NCBI GenBank assembly: GCA_036506735.1
Contig: DASXRG010000038.1
Location: forward strand, 6,856 to 70,855
Source of the DNA: Candidatus Binatia bacterium
Lineage (GTDB): Bacteria; Desulfobacterota; Binatia; UBA9968
Reading direction: 5' to 3'
DNA length: 64,000 bases
Under the pieces are notes generated by a model. The model was not told the DNA's origin. It saw nothing but the letters and a program-made list of their open reading frames with translations, and did no database searches. A program made the translations under genes and the position numbers. Within the stretch, counting starts at the first letter, position 1. Each line of letters starts with the position of its first letter. Of this stretch, positions 53,403 to 63,153 are shown in pieces.

Positions 53403-54371
53403 CTAACGTCCCTGGCCGAGCGCCTTGGCCGCGAAAGTTCCGATAAAAAATTTCTCCGCGCCGCCGATCTTCCTGGCGTCCGCCTCCAGTCTGGCCGCGG
53501 CGACGATACTGTCGATCTCTTCTTTCGTGATGGAGATCGAATAGAGGTCGGCGAAGTGCTCGACGACCTTTCTGACGGTCGCGGGATCGCCGTAAGATTT
53601 TTTCTTCAAGACCGTGGCGATGACTCTCTCCGGGTCGGTCTTGACGAGATCCATGCCGCGCTTCATCGCCTTGAGTAAAGACACGGCGCCTTCAGGATCG
53701 GTCTCCGCTTTGCGCCGGCTGGAAAGAATGACCACAAAGGGGAATCCCGTCACGACCTTGCCGATGTCGAACAGCACCGGAAAGCCTTTGCGCTCGAGCT
53801 CCAGCTTTTCCATGAAAGAAAACGGCGAGGCCTGAATCCTTCCCGCTTCCAATGCCTGCGCGCGTGCCGGACTGTTGCCGACGCCGTAAAGAACCTTGTA
53901 ATCCCGGTCGCGCACGAGTCCTTTTTTCGCGAGCCCTTCCACGGAAGCGAACTCCGCGATTCCGCCGGCGCCGGTGACGCCGACGACCTTGCCCTTGAGA
54001 TCATTGGCCGTCGATATCCCTTTAGCGCCGATCAGACTGTAGTCGATGTAGGGCTGCATTCCTCCCACGATGGTGAGGGGGGCGCCTTGCGCGATCGCCC
54101 GCACGGAAGGGACCGAGCCGGCCAGAGTATAATCCACGTCGCCGCCGATCAGCGCGGCGATCGCCGTGGGTCCGCCGATGATGAAGACCGGTTTGATCTC
54201 CAGCCCCTCGGCGGCAAAGAAGCCCAGCTCCATGCCGATCACCAGCGGCAACGTGCTGCTCAACGTCGGCGTCTGGTAGGCGAAGGTGACCGGTTTGGCC
54301 TCGAGTGCTTCGGGCGCGGCAAGGAGGACGATGAGCCAAGCGAAAAAGCAGCCGCGCAGAATCCTCTTCAC
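53403..54371 (-). CDS. NMT1-like ABC substrate-binding protein
   Basis: Signal peptide CFFAWLIVLLAAPEALEA; LKGKVVGVTGAGG pattern. Confidence 0.65.
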   Translation of the reverse strand: MKRILRGCFFAWLIVLLAAPEALEAKPVTFAYQTPTLSSTLPLVIGMELGFFAAEGLEIKPVFIIGGPTAIAALIGGDVDYTLAGSVPSVRAIAQGAPLTIVGGMQPYIDYSLIGAKGISTANDLKGKVVGVTGAGGIAEFASVEGLAKKGLVRDRDYKVLYGVGNSPARAQALEAGRIQASPFSFMEKLELERKGFPVLFDIGKVVTGFPFVVILSSRRKAETDPEGAVSLLKAMKRGMDLVKTDPERVIATVLKKKSYGDPATVRKVVEHFADLYSISITKEEIDSIVAAARLEADARKIGGAEKFFIGTFAAKALGQGR

Positions 54372-55336: not shown

Positions 55337-56320
55337 TTATGATTTCAGTCCTTCCACAAACTGCTCGCGTTTGAGCCGGTCGACCAGCGTTCCGTCGATA
55401 AATTCTTTCGGATCGCGGCGCGCGGCGTCCGGAAACTCGTTGCCGAAGTTTTCCAGGATCAGACGCGTCCCCTCGACCGTCGGCGCGGCGTAGTCGGGCA
55501 GCAGCGAGACGACGAAGTCGTATTCCATCCTGATGAGCTGGGGATCGTTCATCCTCATGTATTTGGCGATGATCCGCTCGCTTTCCGGCCGGTGGCGCTT
55601 CATGGTCCAGATCGCTTCGGTGAGCGACTTGAGATAGCGGTAGGCGACGTCGCGATTGGGGCCGAGCCAGGCTTCGTCGACGACGACGGAGGTCCAGGGG
55701 AAAGGAATGCCCATCTGCTGCGCGGTAGCGAGTACGCGAAAACCGAGCGCCCGGGCCTGCTCGGTCGCTGCGGCGCCCAGGAACGTGTACTGAATTTTGC
55801 CGACTTTGAACGCGGCGAGGCGGCTCGCGTCGCCGCCGAGCTGCAAGAGCTTCAGGTCTTTTTCCACGCTGAGGCCGGCCTTGCGAAAAAGATAACGAAA
55901 ACCCTGATCGGTCGAAGAGCCGAAGCGGGAAATTCCTCCTACCTTACCCTTCAACTCGGGGATCGCCTTGATCTCGGGCAGGGTCACCAGGTTTGCCGCC
56001 AGGAAAGGCAGCGGGTTGGCGAGGATCAACAGCTTGATTCCTCTCAAGCGCGCTTCGATCGAAACCGGCCCGCCGCCCGCGACCTGGATGCTGCCGCCGA
56101 CCAGCGCCGCGATATTCATCGAGCCGCTGTTGATGTAGAGCAGGTCCACGTCGAGACCGTGCTTCCGATACAAGCCGGCGTCCTGGGCGACCCACAAGTA
56201 CGATTGGCTCGCGTTCAGCGCCGAGTAGGCGACGCGGAATCGGTCGGCGGCGAACCCGCGGGCGGGAAGAGAGATCGCCAATAAGACGGCGAGTCCAAAC
56301 AACCTGTTACGACGCCTCAA
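55337..56320 (-). CDS. NMT1-like ABC substrate-binding protein
   Basis: Signal peptide LFGLAVLLAISLPARGFAA; LKGKVGGISRFGSSTD pattern. Confidence 0.65.
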   Translation of the reverse strand: MRRRNRLFGLAVLLAISLPARGFAADRFRVAYSALNASQSYLWVAQDAGLYRKHGLDVDLLYINSGSMNIAALVGGSIQVAGGGPVSIEARLRGIKLLILANPLPFLAANLVTLPEIKAIPELKGKVGGISRFGSSTDQGFRYLFRKAGLSVEKDLKLLQLGGDASRLAAFKVGKIQYTFLGAAATEQARALGFRVLATAQQMGIPFPWTSVVVDEAWLGPNRDVAYRYLKSLTEAIWTMKRHRPESERIIAKYMRMNDPQLIRMEYDFVVSLLPDYAAPTVEGTRLILENFGNEFPDAARRDPKEFIDGTLVDRLKREQFVEGLKS

Positions 56321-56371: not shown

Positions 56372-57565
56372 CTAGGACCACAGTCTCGTAAAGCGCTCGC
56401 CGAACTGGCGCGCAATCTCGCGCGATTCGATGACCACGCTGAGATCGTCGTACAGGAAGTAAGAGCCCGCCGACCAGTTGTGGCTGCCGACGATCACGCG
56501 CTCTCCGTCGACGATCACGAACTTCGAGTGCAGCAGCTTGTCCGCGGGATCGAAGCGGCAGGCGACGCCGGCCTGGTCAAAAAGCTGCTTGGCGGGCGCA
56601 TTGATGATCGCCGAACGATAAGGATCTTCCTCACGGTCCTGGTCCATCAGCACCCGCACTTCGACGCCGCGACCGTGCGCGGCGATCAGCGAGTCGATCA
56701 GCGCGCGGGTCGGGTGTTGCGGCGACGCGCACGCGATGTGAAACATGCAAACCTCGATCGTGGCCCGCGCGTCGTCGAAAAGCGCGGGCAGAGCGCGGTA
56801 GTATTCGATCCCGGAAAGGACGCCCATCCATTCGGCCTCGGTCTCGGGCGGCGTCAGCGGCGTCGGCACTTGGCGGATGCGCTGCGCCCGTGCCGCCGGG
56901 TGCGGGTCTTGAGCCGTCTCCGCCGCCAGCATATCGAGCGCCGCGGCCAGCCGTTGCCGCGCGCCGTCGCCCGGCTGTCGACCGACCAGGGTGGCCACGT
57001 CACGCGCGAAATCGCCGGAGGCGCGCGGGTATTCCGGCAGCGTCTCGCCCGGACCGTCGAACCAAACCGCCCGTGCAATCTGGTCGCGCCGCTGCGCGCC
57101 GATTCCTTTCACCCGGTCATCGAAGTCGTCCAGCGAAGCGAACCGGCCGTGCGCGGTGCGCTCGTCGACGACCCGCCGGCAGACGGTTGCATCCAACCCG
57201 AGCGCGGCCAATTGCTCGACCGGCGCGCGGTTGAGCCGCACGCGCTCGACGCGCTCGATCACCGAGCCGAGCTTGGGGATCGCCGAGCGGTGCTCCATTT
57301 GCCCCGGCGGCACCGGAGAAGCGGCCGCCTGCGCCATAAGGTGGCGCGTCGCTTCGTGCAGCCACTGCCGCGCGATCGCGGTACATTCGGCGGCCGACCT
57401 CGGCTCCTCGCACAGCGGCAGCCCGCCGACATGTTTGAGGACGCGAGCGACCACCGGCCGGAGTCCGGTCAAATCCACGCTTGCCTCCACTCCGGCCGCG
57501 TCGCCGAGTTGCCGCAGCAGATCGTCGGTCGCGAGCGCTTCCCACTCGAATTTGTACATGGTCAT
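56372..57565 (-). CDS. PLD-superfamily (single HKD) protein with N-terminal region and helix-hairpin-helix DNA-binding-like segment
   Basis: C-terminal HSKFVIVDGERVIVGSHNWS (HxK-x4-D-x6-GSxN). Central LNRAPVEQLAALGLDATVCRRVVDERTAHGRFASLDDFDDRVKGIGAQRRDQI resembles ComEA-type HhH. ATG at 57565 gives an ATGA overlap with the upstream PLD gene. Confidence 0.7.
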   Translation of the reverse strand: MTMYKFEWEALATDDLLRQLGDAAGVEASVDLTGLRPVVARVLKHVGGLPLCEEPRSAAECTAIARQWLHEATRHLMAQAAASPVPPGQMEHRSAIPKLGSVIERVERVRLNRAPVEQLAALGLDATVCRRVVDERTAHGRFASLDDFDDRVKGIGAQRRDQIARAVWFDGPGETLPEYPRASGDFARDVATLVGRQPGDGARQRLAAALDMLAAETAQDPHPAARAQRIRQVPTPLTPPETEAEWMGVLSGIEYYRALPALFDDARATIEVCMFHIACASPQHPTRALIDSLIAAHGRGVEVRVLMDQDREEDPYRSAIINAPAKQLFDQAGVACRFDPADKLLHSKFVIVDGERVIVGSHNWSAGSYFLYDDLSVVIESREIARQFGERFTRLWS

Positions 57566-58077
57566 TTCACGAACGCCCGGCTCCATTGCTGCTGGAAGAG
57601 CGCCGCGACGTGGGCGGCGAAATCGGGCGAGAGCACGAGCACGCTGTCCTGCGTTTGATCGCCGAAGGCGCCGGCGGACCAGTTGTGCGACCCGGTGAGC
57701 ACGTAGTCGTCGGCGACGACGAACTTCGCGTGGCTGCCGCGCACTTTATGGCTCGTCAGCCAGCGGCAGGGAATATCAAGCTGTAAGGCCCGGGCGCGGG
57801 CCAAATCCGCCGTCTGGGCGATGCCGAAGTTGTCGCGCGAGCCGCCGAGCAGGAGCCGGACGTCCACGCCGCGCCAGCGCGCTGCGGCCAGGTCCTCGAG
57901 CAATTCGTCCACGATCAACTCGGAATCGCTGAGCGGCAACGGATCGACGATGAACAGGCTGCACAGCAACGAGCGCTCGGCCGCCGCCACGAGCGCGCGC
58001 ACCTCCGAGTGATACGCGCCGTCGGAGACCAGGCGCACGCGCGGCCGGAGCACCCCGGTCGGAATCGGCGCCGTCAC
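57562..58077 (-). CDS. Small PLD-superfamily (single HKD, Nuc-like size) protein
   Basis: 171 aa; HAKFVVADDYVLTGSHNWS; GTGA overlap with the upstream gene. Confidence 0.7.
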   Translation of the reverse strand: MTAPIPTGVLRPRVRLVSDGAYHSEVRALVAAAERSLLCSLFIVDPLPLSDSELIVDELLEDLAAARWRGVDVRLLLGGSRDNFGIAQTADLARARALQLDIPCRWLTSHKVRGSHAKFVVADDYVLTGSHNWSAGAFGDQTQDSVLVLSPDFAAHVAALFQQQWSRAFVK

Positions 58078-58379
58078 AAACTATCTCCGAGCCCAGCGTG
58101 CTTGAGCGCGAGCCGCGCCACGGTGCGCGCGAAGCGGAGGGCGTCGTCGTGATGCTGCAGCCGGTCATAGGCCGCCGCGGCGCGCCCGGTAAGCGCGGCG
58201 AGAAGTCCCATCTGCCGCGCGTCCTTGCGATCGATCGCCCCCGACATGGCTTCGACGAGCCTGAGCGCCGAGCGCTCGCCGAGCTGCAATAACTCGAAAC
58301 GCCGCGCGTGCCGCTCGTACATTTCATGGCGCTTGAGCGCGGCGAACTCTTTGTCGGTGAGCGCGGTGAAGTCGGCCAT
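58074..58379 (-). CDS. Hypothetical all-helical protein (101 aa)
   Basis: ORF bracketed by 1-nt and 4-nt junctions with its neighbours. No motif recognised. Confidence 0.45.
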   Translation of the reverse strand: MADFTALTDKEFAALKRHEMYERHARRFELLQLGERSALRLVEAMSGAIDRKDARQMGLLAALTGRAAAAYDRLQHHDDALRFARTVARLALKHAGLGDSL

Positions 58380-58380
58380 T

Positions 58381-58932
58381 TCACTCCTCCTCGGGCAGGC
58401 TCCAATCGCTCGGCAGCGGCGGATCCGAACTTTCGACTTCGCGCTCGAGCGCGTCGGCGCCGAATTGATTGAGAACGTCTTGAATCGGCGACTCGCCGAT
58501 CTTGCCCTTGCCCTTGCATTGGTCCTTGACCGCCTTGAGGAAGGCCGCGGCGAAGGCCTGGGCCATCTGCTCGCGCTCTTCTTTGCTTGTCTCCCATTCC
58601 GCGTCGGTGTCCGGGTCGAACTCCTCGTCGAGCTGATCGTGCAGCCCGTGCATCAACTCGTGCGACGCCGAACTGTACGCGTAGTCGAAGCCGTCGGTGG
58701 TGCTCCCGGGATGGTTCTCGAAGAGGTCGGGGTCGAGGTAGAGCGTGTCGGTGTTGCCGTCCCACTCGGCGCGGTGGCCGGGATTATGCGGCGGCGCCTC
58801 GCGCTTGATCTGAAAATTGTCGTTTATCCCGAGGCGCCGCGCCAAATCCCTGAGGTTCTGCTCGGTGTCATGAAAGCGCTTATCTGCCGTGAAGCTATTC
58901 CAGTTTTCCAATTGCTCGCAAAGACCCGCCAT
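58381..58932 (-). CDS. Hypothetical acidic protein with HExxH motif (putative Zn-metallopeptidase)
   Basis: SSASHELMHGLHDQL in a 183-aa ORF with an acidic C-terminal tail (SDWSLPEEE). First gene of the four-gene operon. Confidence 0.5.
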   Translation of the reverse strand: MAGLCEQLENWNSFTADKRFHDTEQNLRDLARRLGINDNFQIKREAPPHNPGHRAEWDGNTDTLYLDPDLFENHPGSTTDGFDYAYSSASHELMHGLHDQLDEEFDPDTDAEWETSKEEREQMAQAFAAAFLKAVKDQCKGKGKIGESPIQDVLNQFGADALEREVESSDPPLPSDWSLPEEE

Positions 58933-59074
58933 GACGCGCCTCCTCGCCGGCCCGGTCGCGCGGGCCGTGCGCGATCATCGAACGCGTGAGGCTTAATACA
59001 ACGGTGCCGCGTTTGCAAGTCGAGGTTGTATTCCAAGGAGCGGCTATTTTATAAACAATCAGGAGGAAAGGGCT

Positions 59075-59485
59075 ATGGCGAACCGCTGGCTTTTCAAAAC
59101 GGAACCGACTGCGTATTCGTTTCAACAATTAGACAAAGACAAGCGTACGGTGTGGGACGGCGTGAAGAACAACCTCGCGCTCAAGCATCTGAGCAAGATC
59201 AAGCATGGGGATTCGATTTTCATCTACCACACCGGCGACGAGAAGGCCGTGGTCGGGGTCGCCAAAGCGCTGAGCGAGGCGTATCCGGACCCGGCGCAGA
59301 AAGACCCCAAGCTGCGCGTCGTCGAAATCGAGGCGGAAAAAGCGCTGCCGCGACCGGTCGCGCTGGCGGAAATAAAATCCAACCCGAAGTTGCAAAGCTT
59401 CGACCTGGCGCGTCTGCCGCGCCTATCGGTGATGCCGGTGAGCGACGAACAATGGAAGATCATCGAAGAGCTGTCACGCCGGTAA
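59075..59485 (+). CDS. EVE (PUA-like) domain protein
   Basis: MANRWLFKTEPTAYSFQQL...VWDGVKNNLALKHLSKIKHGDSIFIYHTG...VVGVAKA is the canonical EVE/DUF55 N-terminal pattern; AGGAGGA Shine-Dalgarno. Confidence 0.75.
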   Translation: MANRWLFKTEPTAYSFQQLDKDKRTVWDGVKNNLALKHLSKIKHGDSIFIYHTGDEKAVVGVAKALSEAYPDPAQKDPKLRVVEIEAEKALPRPVALAEIKSNPKLQSFDLARLPRLSVMPVSDEQWKIIEELSRR

Positions 59486-59663
59486 TCACCGGAAGTGGAT
59501 TACGCTCCGGCTGATTCCGTCAAGCCTCAAAACACGTAAAAATTTCCCTCCCCGCCTACTTTTTTACGGGCGCGATCCCCGCTGATCGCCGATAAGTTCT
59601 TTAATTTACCTGACTATTTGTTGGCATGGCCGTTGCTCTGGCTTCTCCTTGGCTGGAGGCAAT

Positions 59664-60065
59664 ATGGAAACGCTACGGAGCAACCCCGCTTGGAAAATGG
59701 CCATCATCATGCTGATCGCCTTGACCTGCCTTTTTATCTTTCTGGTCGCCTTGGCCTCCTCCCAGGCCGGTGATAGCGCTCAGGCTGCCCGCGACAAAGC
59801 CATGTTGACAGCTTTGGCCGCCGCCCAGGCTATCCCTTCCGAAAGCGAGGACGGGCACAAATTCCTGAATGATTTTGTGCTGGTTCCGGGGAGCGCCGTT
59901 CTGGTCGACGATCACCACGTTCTGGCGTTGTACAAAAATGAGGGAAAGGATTTTTATGCGGTGCTTTTGTTCAGCGTCGATTGCGATCGAACGGGCTGCA
60001 CTCCCAACCAGCTTCTCGCCTTCTCGATAGTCGATAGCGACGGTCAGGATATCCAGGTCGCATAA
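59664..60065 (+). CDS. Hypothetical membrane-anchored protein
   Basis: N-terminal TM (WKMAIIMLIALTCLFIFLVALA); GGAGG upstream of the ATG at 59664. No family recognised. Confidence 0.4.
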   Translation: METLRSNPAWKMAIIMLIALTCLFIFLVALASSQAGDSAQAARDKAMLTALAAAQAIPSESEDGHKFLNDFVLVPGSAVLVDDHHVLALYKNEGKDFYAVLLFSVDCDRTGCTPNQLLAFSIVDSDGQDIQVA

Positions 60066-60163
60066 CATCGAAGTGAACAAGTCGAGGAGCACGTCGTCAT
60101 ACATATATATGAGGTCGGTTAGGTCAGAGTAGGACATCCGGCATCGGCAAAAGGAGGTGGAAG

Positions 60164-60514
60164 ATGGAAGCAGGTAAGGCAAGGACATCCCTCGGAGCGA
60201 CGGTCAAGATTTCGCATCAACATTGGCTGCGCGGGCTTGAGCAGGGAATGGTGATCGGTTACCGGCCGCGCGCGCAAAAAAATTGGCTGGTCAAATTCGA
60301 CGAAAGGTATCCCGGCGGCGGAATCGACGGGGATAAGCTGTACTTCAACGAAAGCGAATTCATAGAAATCCGTGACCCGGACGCGTCTCTCGAAACGCCC
60401 ACGTTGGCCTCAAATGAATTTCTCATCTCTGCGCCCGGGCTGGGTGAAAAACCGGCCGTGGCGTCAAACGAGTTTGTCATCTCCGCGGCCAACGGCCACG
60501 ACATCCGACAATAA
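60164..60514 (+). CDS. Hypothetical protein (116 aa) with internal ASNEF[LV]ISA duplication
   Basis: Strong Shine-Dalgarno (AAAGGAGGTGGAAG-ATG). The nine-residue motif is repeated at 60407-60433 and 60461-60487. Confidence 0.45.
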   Translation: MEAGKARTSLGATVKISHQHWLRGLEQGMVIGYRPRAQKNWLVKFDERYPGGGIDGDKLYFNESEFIEIRDPDASLETPTLASNEFLISAPGLGEKPAVASNEFVISAANGHDIRQ

Positions 60515-60662
60515 GCCAAATTTCTTTTTCCGCTCGCAACCTGCCACCCAGCGCCGTCTCCCGTGAGACGGCGCTCCTCTCTCAGCCGCTGTCGCCCTCT
60601 CGAACTTGAAGAAATCGGTTGTTCTAGGGTAGCGTACCCGAACAATCTTCTGAGGAGGGTGT

Positions 60663-62090: not shown

Positions 62091-62164
62091 AGGCGGAGGG
62101 ATGAAGGCTGAAAAAAATACAAAAGAGAGTTTCTTTTTCATCCCTCATCCCTCATCCTTCATCC
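62091..62164. repeat. Heptamer-periodic inverted repeat (GGATGAG / CATCCCT family)
   Basis: AGGCGGAGGGATGAAGGCTGAA ... TTCATCCCT CATCCCT CATCCTT CATCC. Confidence 0.75.
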
Positions 62165-63153
62165 TTGTCATGTTTGCCGCGACGTTTTTTGTCTCCTCCA
62201 TTTGGGCACAAGAACCCAAAACATTGACGGTCGTCTCCTATCCCGCCCGGCCGCCGAAACTTTCTCTCTGGCTCGCGCTGGAAGAAAAGCTTTTCGCCAA
62301 ATACGGCCTGAACGTCGCCGTGAAAGAATTGGACTCGAGCGATGAGCTGCTGCGCGCGCTCGGGAAACGAGAAGGGGATATCTACGCCGCGACCGCGACC
62401 CACGTCATCTCCGGCATCGGCGACGGCGCCGATTTGGTTTTTATCGCCAACACCGGCTACAGCGTGCTCAAGCTCCTGGCGCGTCCCGAGATCAGCCGTC
62501 CGGAAGAGCTCAAGGGCAAGAAGGTCGGCACCGGCGAGGCCGGCAGCAACCAGGACCGGATCACGCGCCAGACGCTCTTGCGTCTGGGGCTGAATCCCGA
62601 CAAAGACGTGACCCTGGTTTCTTTCGGCAGCCGGAGCGTCACCCGCTTGAACGCGCTGCTCGAGGGCAAGATCGACGCGACGACCAGCAACGAGGACAAT
62701 ATTTACGATCTCGAACGCAGGGGCGGTCTCGGCAAGGTCCGCGTTTTGGCCGACAACGACAGCCTCAAGCTCTACATCGGCGCGGGGGTGGACTTCGCGG
62801 TCTCGCGCGCGCTGCTCGGGCGCGCGCGGGAAAAGGTCAAGAATTTTCTCCGGGCGCTGTGCGAATCGATCGCGCTGGGCAAAAAGTCGCGCGCGGCGGC
62901 GGATCGCGTGTACACCAAGTATCTCCAAGTCAAAGATCCGGCGATGCTGGATTTCATGTACCGTACTTACGTGCAAGGCGCGATTCCCGAGCGGCCGTAT
63001 CCGAAGTCGGAAGTCATCGCGCTGGGCCTGGAGGAATTCGGCGCCAAGCCCGGAGTCAAAGGGAAAAGAGCGGAAGAGCTGATCGACGTCAGTTTACTGA
63101 AAGAGCTGGAGCAGGAAGGTTTCTTCGACCGGCTGTACGGAGCCGCCAGGTAA
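62101..63153 (+). CDS. NMT1-like ABC substrate-binding protein
   Basis: LKGKKVGTGEAGSNQD pattern and overall similarity to the other SBPs in the window. The start is uncertain: 62101 lies inside the hairpin, and the alternative ATG is at 62170. Confidence 0.6.
   Translation: MKAEKNTKESFFFIPHPSSFILVMFAATFFVSSIWAQEPKTLTVVSYPARPPKLSLWLALEEKLFAKYGLNVAVKELDSSDELLRALGKREGDIYAATATHVISGIGDGADLVFIANTGYSVLKLLARPEISRPEELKGKKVGTGEAGSNQDRITRQTLLRLGLNPDKDVTLVSFGSRSVTRLNALLEGKIDATTSNEDNIYDLERRGGLGKVRVLADNDSLKLYIGAGVDFAVSRALLGRAREKVKNFLRALCESIALGKKSRAAADRVYTKYLQVKDPAMLDFMYRTYVQGAIPERPYPKSEVIALGLEEFGAKPGVKGKRAEELIDVSLLKELEQEGFFDRLYGAAR

Follow-up and report, generated by a model that had tools for sequence, protein, structure and literature searches.

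A rare, conserved four-gene cassette with paired phospholipase D-type proteins and orphan partners in a Candidatus Binatia bacterium

The 64,000-nucleotide stretch of Candidatus Binatia bacterium DNA analysed here (referred to as the window; contig DASXRG010000038.1 of assembly GCA_036506735.1) harbours, at positions 56,372 to 58,932, a compact cassette of four genes, A, B, C and D, of which the last two encode proteins with the features of the phospholipase D (PLD) superfamily. The cassette is real, rare, conserved and uncharacterised, and represents a mobile module based on predicted PLD nucleases and equipped with orphan partners. It is very probable that it acts as a functional unit with a PLD-nuclease core. 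The more specific reading that is preferred here, namely that of a horizontally mobile conflict module in which C and D would form a hetero-oligomeric DNA nuclease restrained by A and B, has a chance a little short of even.

Arrangement and distribution of the cassette

All four genes, and the motifs within them, are located on the minus strand. Gene A (58381..58932) encodes an acidic protein of 183 amino acids (isoelectric point, pI, 4.39) with a predicted small zincin-like fold, and occupies a fast-evolving and variable position termed the A slot. It is followed by gene B (58074..58379), which specifies a basic protein of 101 amino acids (pI 9.7; family median 10.35), and by gene C (57562..58077), which starts with GTG and encodes a roughly Nuc-sized PLD protein of 171 amino acids with a single HKD motif. 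The 397-amino-acid product of gene D (56372..57565) joins an N-terminal domain, a helix-hairpin-helix (HhH) module of the (HhH)2 type, a helical linker and a PLD domain that also has a single HKD motif.

A first interpretation made from the sequence alone (the sequence-only reading) had stated that the four open reading frames (ORFs) are linked by TGAaATG, GTGA and ATGA junctions, and this was confirmed on the sequence. The stop codon of A (TGA, 58383-58381) is separated by one spacer base from the ATG of B at 58379 (gagTGAaATGgcc), the stop codon of B (TGA, 58076-58074) is overlapped by the GTG start of C at 58077 (tttGTGAcgg), and that of C (TGA, 57564-57562) by the ATG start of D at 57565 (gtgaaATGAcc), with a four-base overlap in both of the latter cases. 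The mechanical ORF list places the start of D at an upstream in-frame ATG (57586); the start at 57565, or possibly 57559, is favoured by the deposited protein (P0001; 397 amino acids, 100% identical, from a "Candidatus Binatia bacterium" metagenome-assembled genome, MAG) and by the N-termini of 38 homologues. In all 27 related loci that could be measured, the four genes follow one another in this order, with junction offsets between -23 and +23 nucleotides (nt), and the C and D genes overlap in 26 of these. Since order and tight offsets repeat in this way, the arrangement is not due to chance.

The A-B-C-D order recurs in approximately 39 loci from at least 10 bacterial phyla and one archaeon. 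Synteny in other genomes, on which the sequence-only reading had staked its case, is thus borne out across phyla. Among 5.8 billion protein clusters, about 44 full-length relatives of D were identified, at 32-50% identity, and a scan of one genome per species, covering 185,579 species, revealed approximately 32 full-length loci, corresponding to about 0.02% of species; the same four genes were seen in eight further metagenomic contexts. The hosts belong to the Gemmatimonadota, Chloroflexota, Desulfobacterota, Planctomycetota, Alpha-, Beta- and Gammaproteobacteria, Actinomycetota (Nonomuraea, Mycetocola, Saccharothrix and Phycicoccus), Bacteroidota and Cyanobacteria, and include one Methanotrichaceae archaeon. 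Cultured carriers are Nonomuraea roseola, Phycicoccus avicenniae, Saccharothrix sp., and Mycetocola sp. An orthologue of C lies directly before D in every locus for which upstream sequence exists, and no D-family gene without C was found among the assessable loci. Homologues of A and B were recovered in most loci by iterative profile search, and where the B profile fails, its slot is usually filled by an ORF of approximately 100 amino acids.

The cassette is a horizontally mobile unit, as follows from its variable flanks, an incongruent D tree, its patchiness and its GC content. The flanking genes differ completely from one locus to another. In Rhodophyticola sp. (L001/L002, 6689-9215), the cassette sits between rsmA and pdxA in opposite orientation and hence separates the genes of the conserved lptD-surA-pdxA-rsmA cluster, which lie together in Escherichia coli; no integrase or transposase was called within the flanks of approximately 8 kb on either side. 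The D tree disagrees with taxonomy, since the archaeal copy is placed with Nonomuraea and the two copies from Gemmatimonadota belong to different clades. The GC content of the 2.56-kb cassette is 0.668, as compared to a window mean of 0.604, which places it in the top 1.3% of segments of equal size. A search for repeats at the cassette detected no flanking repeats that could represent insertion scars.

Some further features of the locus and its relatives may be mentioned. The stretch at approximately 58800-60600 is low in GC (0.54-0.58, with a window mean of 0.60) and makes up, along with the GC-rich cassette, a patch of unusual composition flanked by metabolic genes. Two orphan ORFs lie within this stretch, at 59649-60065 (138 amino acids) and 60164-60514 (116 amino acids), and have no match in Pfam or PHROGs. 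Two copies of the cassette look broken (L035, 6729-9198; L031, 7693-8754), with B, C and D split into ORF fragments, which could reflect pseudogenisation or errors of MAG assembly. The 142-bp intergenic region upstream of A (58933..59074), the presumed promoter region, is shared with a divergent gene encoding an EVE-domain protein. A consensus scan for promoters and terminators produced nothing above the shuffled expectation and no sigma-70-like promoter upstream of A. A perfect 8-nt inverted repeat at 58995-59002 and 59025-59032 (AATACAAC, 22 nt, GTTGTATT) could be an operator; as about 0.2 such repeats are expected there by chance according to our estimate, it is not significant on its own.

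The PLD proteins C and D

Assignment to the PLD/HKD superfamily was based on the motif HxK(x)4D(x)5-6G(S/G)xN and on a domain score that exceeds the Pfam gathering score, and C and D show both features. Their PLDc_2 matches have E values of 4e-16 (59.5 bits) and 7e-26 (91 bits), respectively, at a gathering score of 27, and their HKD motifs are HAKFVVADDYVLTGSHNW in C (57679..57732, residues 116-133) and HSKFVIVDGERVIVGSHNW in D (56474..56530, residues 346-364). Both strings quoted in the sequence-only reading for two adjacent single-HKD proteins were recovered (C residues 116-134 and D residues 346-365). In D, H346, S347, K348, D353, G360, S361, H362, N363 and W364 are invariant in 39 homologues; in C, H116, K118, D123, G129, S130, H131, N132 and W133 are conserved to at least 90% in 32 orthologues. 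With all HKD residues kept, both proteins look catalytically active. The spacing from Asp to Gly is one residue shorter in C than in D, and outside of the motif different residues are conserved, namely GGSR at positions 78-81 of C and D308/D310/D314/S318/N322 (DxDRxxDPYxS) in D. The only long direct repeat at the cassette is formed by the HKD-encoding DNA of both genes, a trace of paralogy between C and D; the segments in question (56465-56530 in D and 57670-57732 in C) are 70-84% identical over approximately 65 nt.

The AlphaFold model of D has a mean predicted local distance difference test (pLDDT) score of 86.7, and its 12 best Foldseek matches in the PDB include Zucchini/PLD6, Nuc, NucT and PLD3/4. 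The best named sequence matches of C are MkoB (1.3e-13) and DrmC (4e-7). One HKD motif per chain and this fold ranking would place C and D in the nuclease branch of the PLD superfamily, with similarity to Nuc, NucT and Zucchini. The domain layout of D comprises an orphan N-terminal domain (residues 1-106), the (HhH)2 module (residues 107-165; 57071..57247), the helical linker and the PLD domain (residues 262-396). The ComEA-like HhH segment that the sequence-only reading had seen in the larger subunit was recovered as an HHH_3 match above the Pfam gathering score (8.6e-8; 32.6 bits against 27), and this family, PF12836, is annotated in nearly all full-length D homologues. The model contains helices at residues 116-163, and N112, R136, R151 and G154 are invariant in the D homologues. 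For the N-terminal domain, no homologue was detectable in the PDB or within the cassette; a uS7 match in the PDB (E = 0.04) was judged to be spurious, and no internal homology was found between B and D or between this domain and A. The N-termini of all four proteins, read from the sequence, are unlike signal peptides, from which a cytoplasmic location is predicted. D therefore looks like a cytoplasmic, DNA-tethered PLD nuclease.

Named systems were searched for in PADLOC-DB v2.0.0, NCBIfam, Pfam and PHROGs. No system of PADLOC-DB was matched: A and B gave nothing better than an E value of 0.0075, whereas C and D retrieved generic PLD models alone. No paper that describes the cassette was found among the open-access papers searched. 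The view that no described system has this combination is thus upheld, A having weak sub-threshold hits of zincin type in these databases and B none. In functional terms, the cassette most resembles Nuc, NucT, BfiI and Zucchini as well as the PLD effectors of DISARM and Mokosh, and it belongs to none of these groups; all curated models fall far short of their cut-offs, and the partner genes of these systems are absent.

Nuc (pKM101), NucT (Helicobacter pylori) and Zucchini (PLD6), the best folds for D, have like D one HKD motif per domain of approximately 150-170 residues, and two half-sites build one metal-independent active site. These enzymes are homodimers encoded by one gene, whereas the cassette always encodes two distinct paralogues, one of which, D, is extended by an N-terminal and an HhH domain. 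A secreted or periplasmic location, as in Nuc and NucT, is not what the N-termini of the cassette proteins suggest. The NCBIfam NucT models score 13-30 bits against cut-offs of 211-351 (PRK13912: 30.1 against 211), which is insufficient for an equivalog assignment. The best named matches in PADLOC and NCBIfam are to MkoB (1e-13), DrmC (7e-12) and DISARM_DrmC_I (3e-12); DISARM DrmC and Mokosh MkoB/MkoC are PLD nuclease effectors of anti-phage systems. The DISARM_DrmC_I scores of C (46.7 bits) and D (41.3 bits) remain far from the cut-off of 133, and none of the DISARM partners, namely the DrmA helicase, DrmB (DUF1998) and the DrmMI/MII methyltransferase, was found among the neighbours in the window or in the related loci. 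The Mokosh match is confined to the PLD region (residues 338-442 of 610 in MkoB and 994-1125 of 1136 in MkoC), and an MkoA-type helicase, which a Mokosh assignment would call for, is absent from the cassette, the window and the related loci. A and B are unrelated to any component of DISARM or Mokosh.

The restriction nucleases of the BfiI and END types unite, like D, a PLD nuclease and a DNA-binding module in one chain. END nucleases sense via an HhH-superfamily domain, an inactive EndoIII (PMC12191111). Enzymes of the BfiI and END types are homodimers from a single gene, with an N-terminal PLD domain and a B3-like or EndoIII-like binding domain, whereas D has a C-terminal PLD domain, a ComEA-type (HhH)2 module, an obligate second PLD gene beside it and two accessory genes. 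The papers on END nucleases and on BREX deal with other architectures. ComEA has the HHH_3 (HhH)2 module in common with D, and some databases label D homologues as "ComE-like"; the ComEA model TIGR01259 gives 26.4 bits for D against a cut-off of 152, in the HhH part alone, and D has no N-terminus resembling a membrane anchor or signal.

Distant relatives of C and D were noted in two Verrucomicrobia loci (L055, 331-3074; L060, 97-1893), where a triple-HKD protein of 598 amino acids precedes one of 316 amino acids with a single HKD motif. The total of four half-sites is even, and pairing between chains would again be needed.

Proteins A and B

The HELMH sequence that had been pointed out in the 183-residue acidic protein A is present at residues 91-95 (58648..58662) and represents a putative zinc-binding and catalytic motif. 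Word-indexed searches with A and with B returned the query proteins alone; an exhaustive HMMER search of 1.84 billion representative proteins identified 8 relatives of A, and the structure model of A was built on this 8-sequence alignment. The resulting AlphaFold model (pLDDT 80.7) consists of three strands followed by a long helix. H91, E92 and H95 are invariant in the 19 A homologues of the HExxH type, and the alignment of the window's subtype shows in addition the invariance of W11, R19, R120, C139 and a C-terminal GDWxLP(P)E. This aromatic motif, DWSLPEEE in the window (58384..58407; family consensus GDWxLPPE), has invariant W177, L179 and P180 (alignment A4) and varies across the HExxH clade (GDWNLP, GDFNLPS, PSYPW, LPPINWG). 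It is preceded by an acidic linker, and the tail is modelled as disordered, with a pLDDT below 50 at residues 164-182.

The matches of A to known families are weak and suggest a small zincin-like fold that belongs to no named family. The Pfam M78 score of A is 18.2 bits against a gathering score of 22; among the 19 homologues, M78 was hit in one, SprT-like families were weakly hit in three, and hits were spread over nine zincin families with none at threshold. The family profile matched proabylysin best in the PDB (E = 0.04), the model retrieved selecase, projannalysin and proabylysin as best PDB folds (E of approximately 0.4), and its best viral fold matches were IrrE-N-like, SprT-like and PolyVal metallopeptidases (E 0.01-0.1); the sequence matched CapP with an E value of 0.0075. 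The likeness to ImmA/IrrE- or SprT-type proteases proposed in the sequence-only reading thus holds at the level of a small zincin fold and fails as family membership, and its statement that the family could not be assigned was fair. ImmA/IrrE (M78), CapP, SprT-like proteins and minigluzincins have, like A, an HExxH helix preceded by a small beta-sheet. A differs from them in that no model reaches threshold, no fold match has an E value below 0.01 and the motif is dispensable in a large clade. ImmA/IrrE and CapP have a helix-turn-helix (HTH) repressor partner, whereas none was detected for A at the sequence-profile level; with this and the sub-threshold M78 score, neither an ImmA/IrrE (Peptidase_M78) nor a CapP-CapH assignment is supported. 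The zymogens of minigluzincins are, according to structure papers of 2013-2014, reportedly kept inactive by a C-terminal tail, and by analogy the conserved C-terminal peptide of A is suggestive.

The HExxH protein proved to be a feature of the window's subtype and not of the four-gene combination as such, being lost in one clade and replaced in another. Eleven A homologues, which go with one D clade, lack HExxH and have Lys/Glu-rich or poly-acidic helices at their ends. A third type of A-slot protein (L025, 6884-7132; L088, 4171-4410) has approximately 80 amino acids, is acidic, possesses conserved Cys residues and an CWSDTLGTDWDCMNRDT motif, is unrelated to the zincin-like A and has its own D clade. 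Three different acidic proteins are therefore found in the A slot, each tied to a D clade, and the constant of this slot is acidity (median pI 4.05) and not proteolysis. Such exchangeability is as expected of a swappable sensor or neutraliser. With median pairwise identities of 17-18% (A and B) as compared to 41% (C) and 36% (D), the rate of evolution of the two small proteins is about double that of the PLD proteins.

Protein B has no match in Pfam, PADLOC, NCBIfam or PHROGs. No homologues outside of the cassette are detectable, and those within cassette loci were recovered solely by iterative profile search. A comparison of the B profile with the PDB gave no meaningful match and retrieved designed helical proteins alone; the earlier description as a 101-residue helical protein is correct in size, with a putative helical character suggested by these designed proteins. 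At the sequence-profile level, no HTH family of Pfam was found in B and 21 homologues, save for one hit with an E value of 0.027. A protease-repressor pair like CapP/CapH or ImmA/ImmR was considered for A and B and found no support, as the comparison of the B profile with the PDB and the Pfam scans of the 22 homologues yielded nothing.

Possible functions of the cassette

In the proposed mechanism, the cassette would be a self-contained, transferred four-gene conflict module, either for defence against invaders or of an addiction type. Its effector would be a cytoplasmic, metal-independent PLD/HKD DNA nuclease made from two different single-HKD subunits, with a composite active site to which C and the PLD domain of D would each contribute a His-Lys-Asn half-site; two identical subunits form the active site of Nuc, BfiI and Zucchini. 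Through its (HhH)2 module, D would keep the enzyme bound to the DNA backbone regardless of sequence. The acidic A and the basic B, translated first by way of coupled or overlapping start and stop codons, would be fast-evolving regulators or neutralisers that silence the nuclease until a trigger is perceived. Since the disordered acidic tail of A in the window's subtype terminates with a conserved aromatic peptide, this A may be a sensor protease that inhibits itself in the manner of a zymogen. We infer heterodimerisation, a DNA substrate, the regulatory role of A and B and the conflict function, the latter from the extreme patchiness, horizontal transfer, compact autonomous architecture, fast-evolving and exchangeable accessory genes, and known effector class. 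In a bolder form, which is rather unlikely, the cassette would be an undescribed immune or abortive system with the first obligate heterodimeric HKD nuclease, possessing an asymmetric site, tethered by (HhH)2 and gated by an exchangeable acidic partner, in the window a tail-autoinhibited mini-zincin that senses the trigger.

The genes around the cassette offer little that would point to defence. Its neighbours in the window are NMT1-like binding proteins, an enzyme of the dihydrodipicolinate synthase (DHDPS) family, an amidohydrolase and the divergent EVE-domain protein. Three paralogous genes for NMT1/THI5-like periplasmic binding proteins (53403-54371, 55337-56320 and 62101-63153) are interleaved with the DHDPS-family and amidohydrolase genes, which represents a metabolic neighbourhood and not a defence island. 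The EVE-domain protein (59075-59485, plus strand; 136 amino acids; Pfam EVE 5e-39) is stand-alone and divergent from A. EVE and PUA-like domains read modified bases in some restriction systems; this protein was considered as a fifth component and rejected, since EVE genes are not a recurrent neighbour of the cassette elsewhere. A scan of the 198 ORFs within four genes of 29 cassettes, evaluated as raw counts, gave isolated PADLOC hits (one reverse transcriptase, RT/DRT, as well as PDC-S09, LmuA, SspH, a Csa3-like protein, a type II restriction endonuclease and a staphylococcal nuclease, SNase) along with obvious false positives, such as RsmA matched to mad2. Three metagenomic copies lie near defence-type genes, namely an OLD-like ATPase-TOPRIM gene, a pair of RT and HRDC genes, and PemK with a restriction-modification system. 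As to single loci, an SNase gene directly follows D in one (L088, 6457-6816), and in another (L036, 6246-7162), which also has a divergent A-slot protein, two ORFs lie directly upstream, one of them SNase-like and the other with a JAB/MPN-like HSHP motif.

Several observations weigh against the conflict-module reading. The association with defence islands is weak, or at most modest, and the genes next to the cassettes mostly have metabolic or housekeeping roles. Phage records, IMG/VR contigs and plasmids yielded no copy; two plasmid records contain generic PLD matches alone, which cover 35% of D. B has no identifiable fold or motif. The third metal ligand of A is not obvious, as it is C139, and not the downstream Glu, that is invariant, and since a whole clade lacks HExxH, proteolysis cannot be the general mechanism. 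Finally, C and D could equally form two separate homodimers.

This last alternative, in which C would be a free, Nuc-like and D a DNA-tethered homodimeric nuclease and both would be co-expressed and work independently, is rather unlikely. To our knowledge, every characterised single-HKD nuclease (Nuc, NucT, BfiI and Zucchini) is a homodimer, and C and D each possess a complete half-site. This is opposed by the adjacency of C and D in every assessable locus, the absence there of any D-family gene without C, the overlap of both genes in all but one of the measurable loci, and the correlation between the pairwise-identity matrices of both proteins (Spearman 0.59). Furthermore, the conserved non-catalytic residues differ between C and D, as they do between the halves of single-chain enzymes with two HKD motifs. 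We thus regard a C:D hetero-oligomer as the most economical reading, based on strict co-occurrence, gene overlap and complementary conservation. Enzymes directed at lipids, for phospholipid synthesis or remodelling, are in turn highly improbable. They are evoked by weak NCBIfam hits to cardiolipin synthase (D, 1e-6) and by phosphatidylserine synthase at fold rank 41. Against them stand a single HKD motif per chain, the lack of a transmembrane segment, a best score of 27.9 bits against a cut-off of 290, too low for a cardiolipin or phosphatidylserine synthase assignment, the first place of nuclease-type PLD proteins by sequence and by fold, and the (HhH)2 DNA-binding segment present in D throughout the family. 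A grouping with lipid synthases, named at the outset, together with a failing HhH call, as an outcome that would count against a DNA-targeting system, was hence not observed; closest by score and fold are DrmC, MkoB, NucT, Zucchini, Nuc and PLD3/4.

At the level of function, a toxin-antitoxin-like addiction module fits the data about equally well as the conflict module. In it, C and D would be the toxin and the upstream A, B or both its labile neutralisers, and the module would persist because its loss is lethal, with no dedicated anti-phage role; taken by itself in this form, it is a fairly unlikely explanation. In its favour, the genes of the putative neutralisers precede those of the nuclease in tight coupling with them, the two small proteins are acidic (A) and basic (B), the distribution is patchy and shaped by horizontal transfer, insertion occurs among housekeeping genes and not in defence islands, and some copies look decayed (L031, L035). 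However, four genes with two catalytic subunits are elaborate for a toxin-antitoxin pair, no copy was found on plasmids, where addiction modules are usually common, and no known DNA-binding fold of antitoxins is detectable in A or B. Many toxin-antitoxin modules act as abortive-infection systems, and the addiction and conflict readings overlap and are not mutually exclusive. A role in DNA repair or processing, for example of DNA-protein crosslinks, is less probable still. A, as a SprT/Wss1-like zincin, would trim the protein adduct, and C and D, as an HhH-tethered, TDP1-like phosphodiesterase, would remove the residual peptide-DNA phosphodiester. Such a role would agree with the weak SprT-like Pfam hits in three A homologues and the SprT-like phage proteins among the fold matches of A, with TDP1 being a member of the PLD superfamily, with HhH as a binding module of DNA-repair type and with the prevalence of housekeeping neighbours. 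Nevertheless, one clade has lost HExxH and another has an unrelated protein of approximately 80 amino acids instead, TDP1 does not appear in the top 50 fold matches of D, and repair is hard to square with an occurrence in approximately 0.02% of species, rampant transfer and A/B identities of 17-18%.

PLD/HKD nucleases serve repeatedly as effectors, namely in DISARM, Mokosh, Dpd, BREX variants and type IIS/IV restriction. The PLD effector class is well established in restriction and defence (PMC12839542, PMC12191111). The combination of a predicted paired half-site nuclease with putative orphan regulators is unusual; the defence-island signal is weak, but the combination is easy to test, because the cassette is compact, self-contained and present in cultured strains, so that direct tests are feasible. 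If true, the strictly co-inherited pair of divergent half-sites would represent a natural split version of the asymmetric enzymes with two HKD motifs, and would offer a tractable system to dissect the contributions of each half-site to catalysis and strand choice. Furthermore, A and B could reveal a new way of silencing a non-specific cytoplasmic nuclease.

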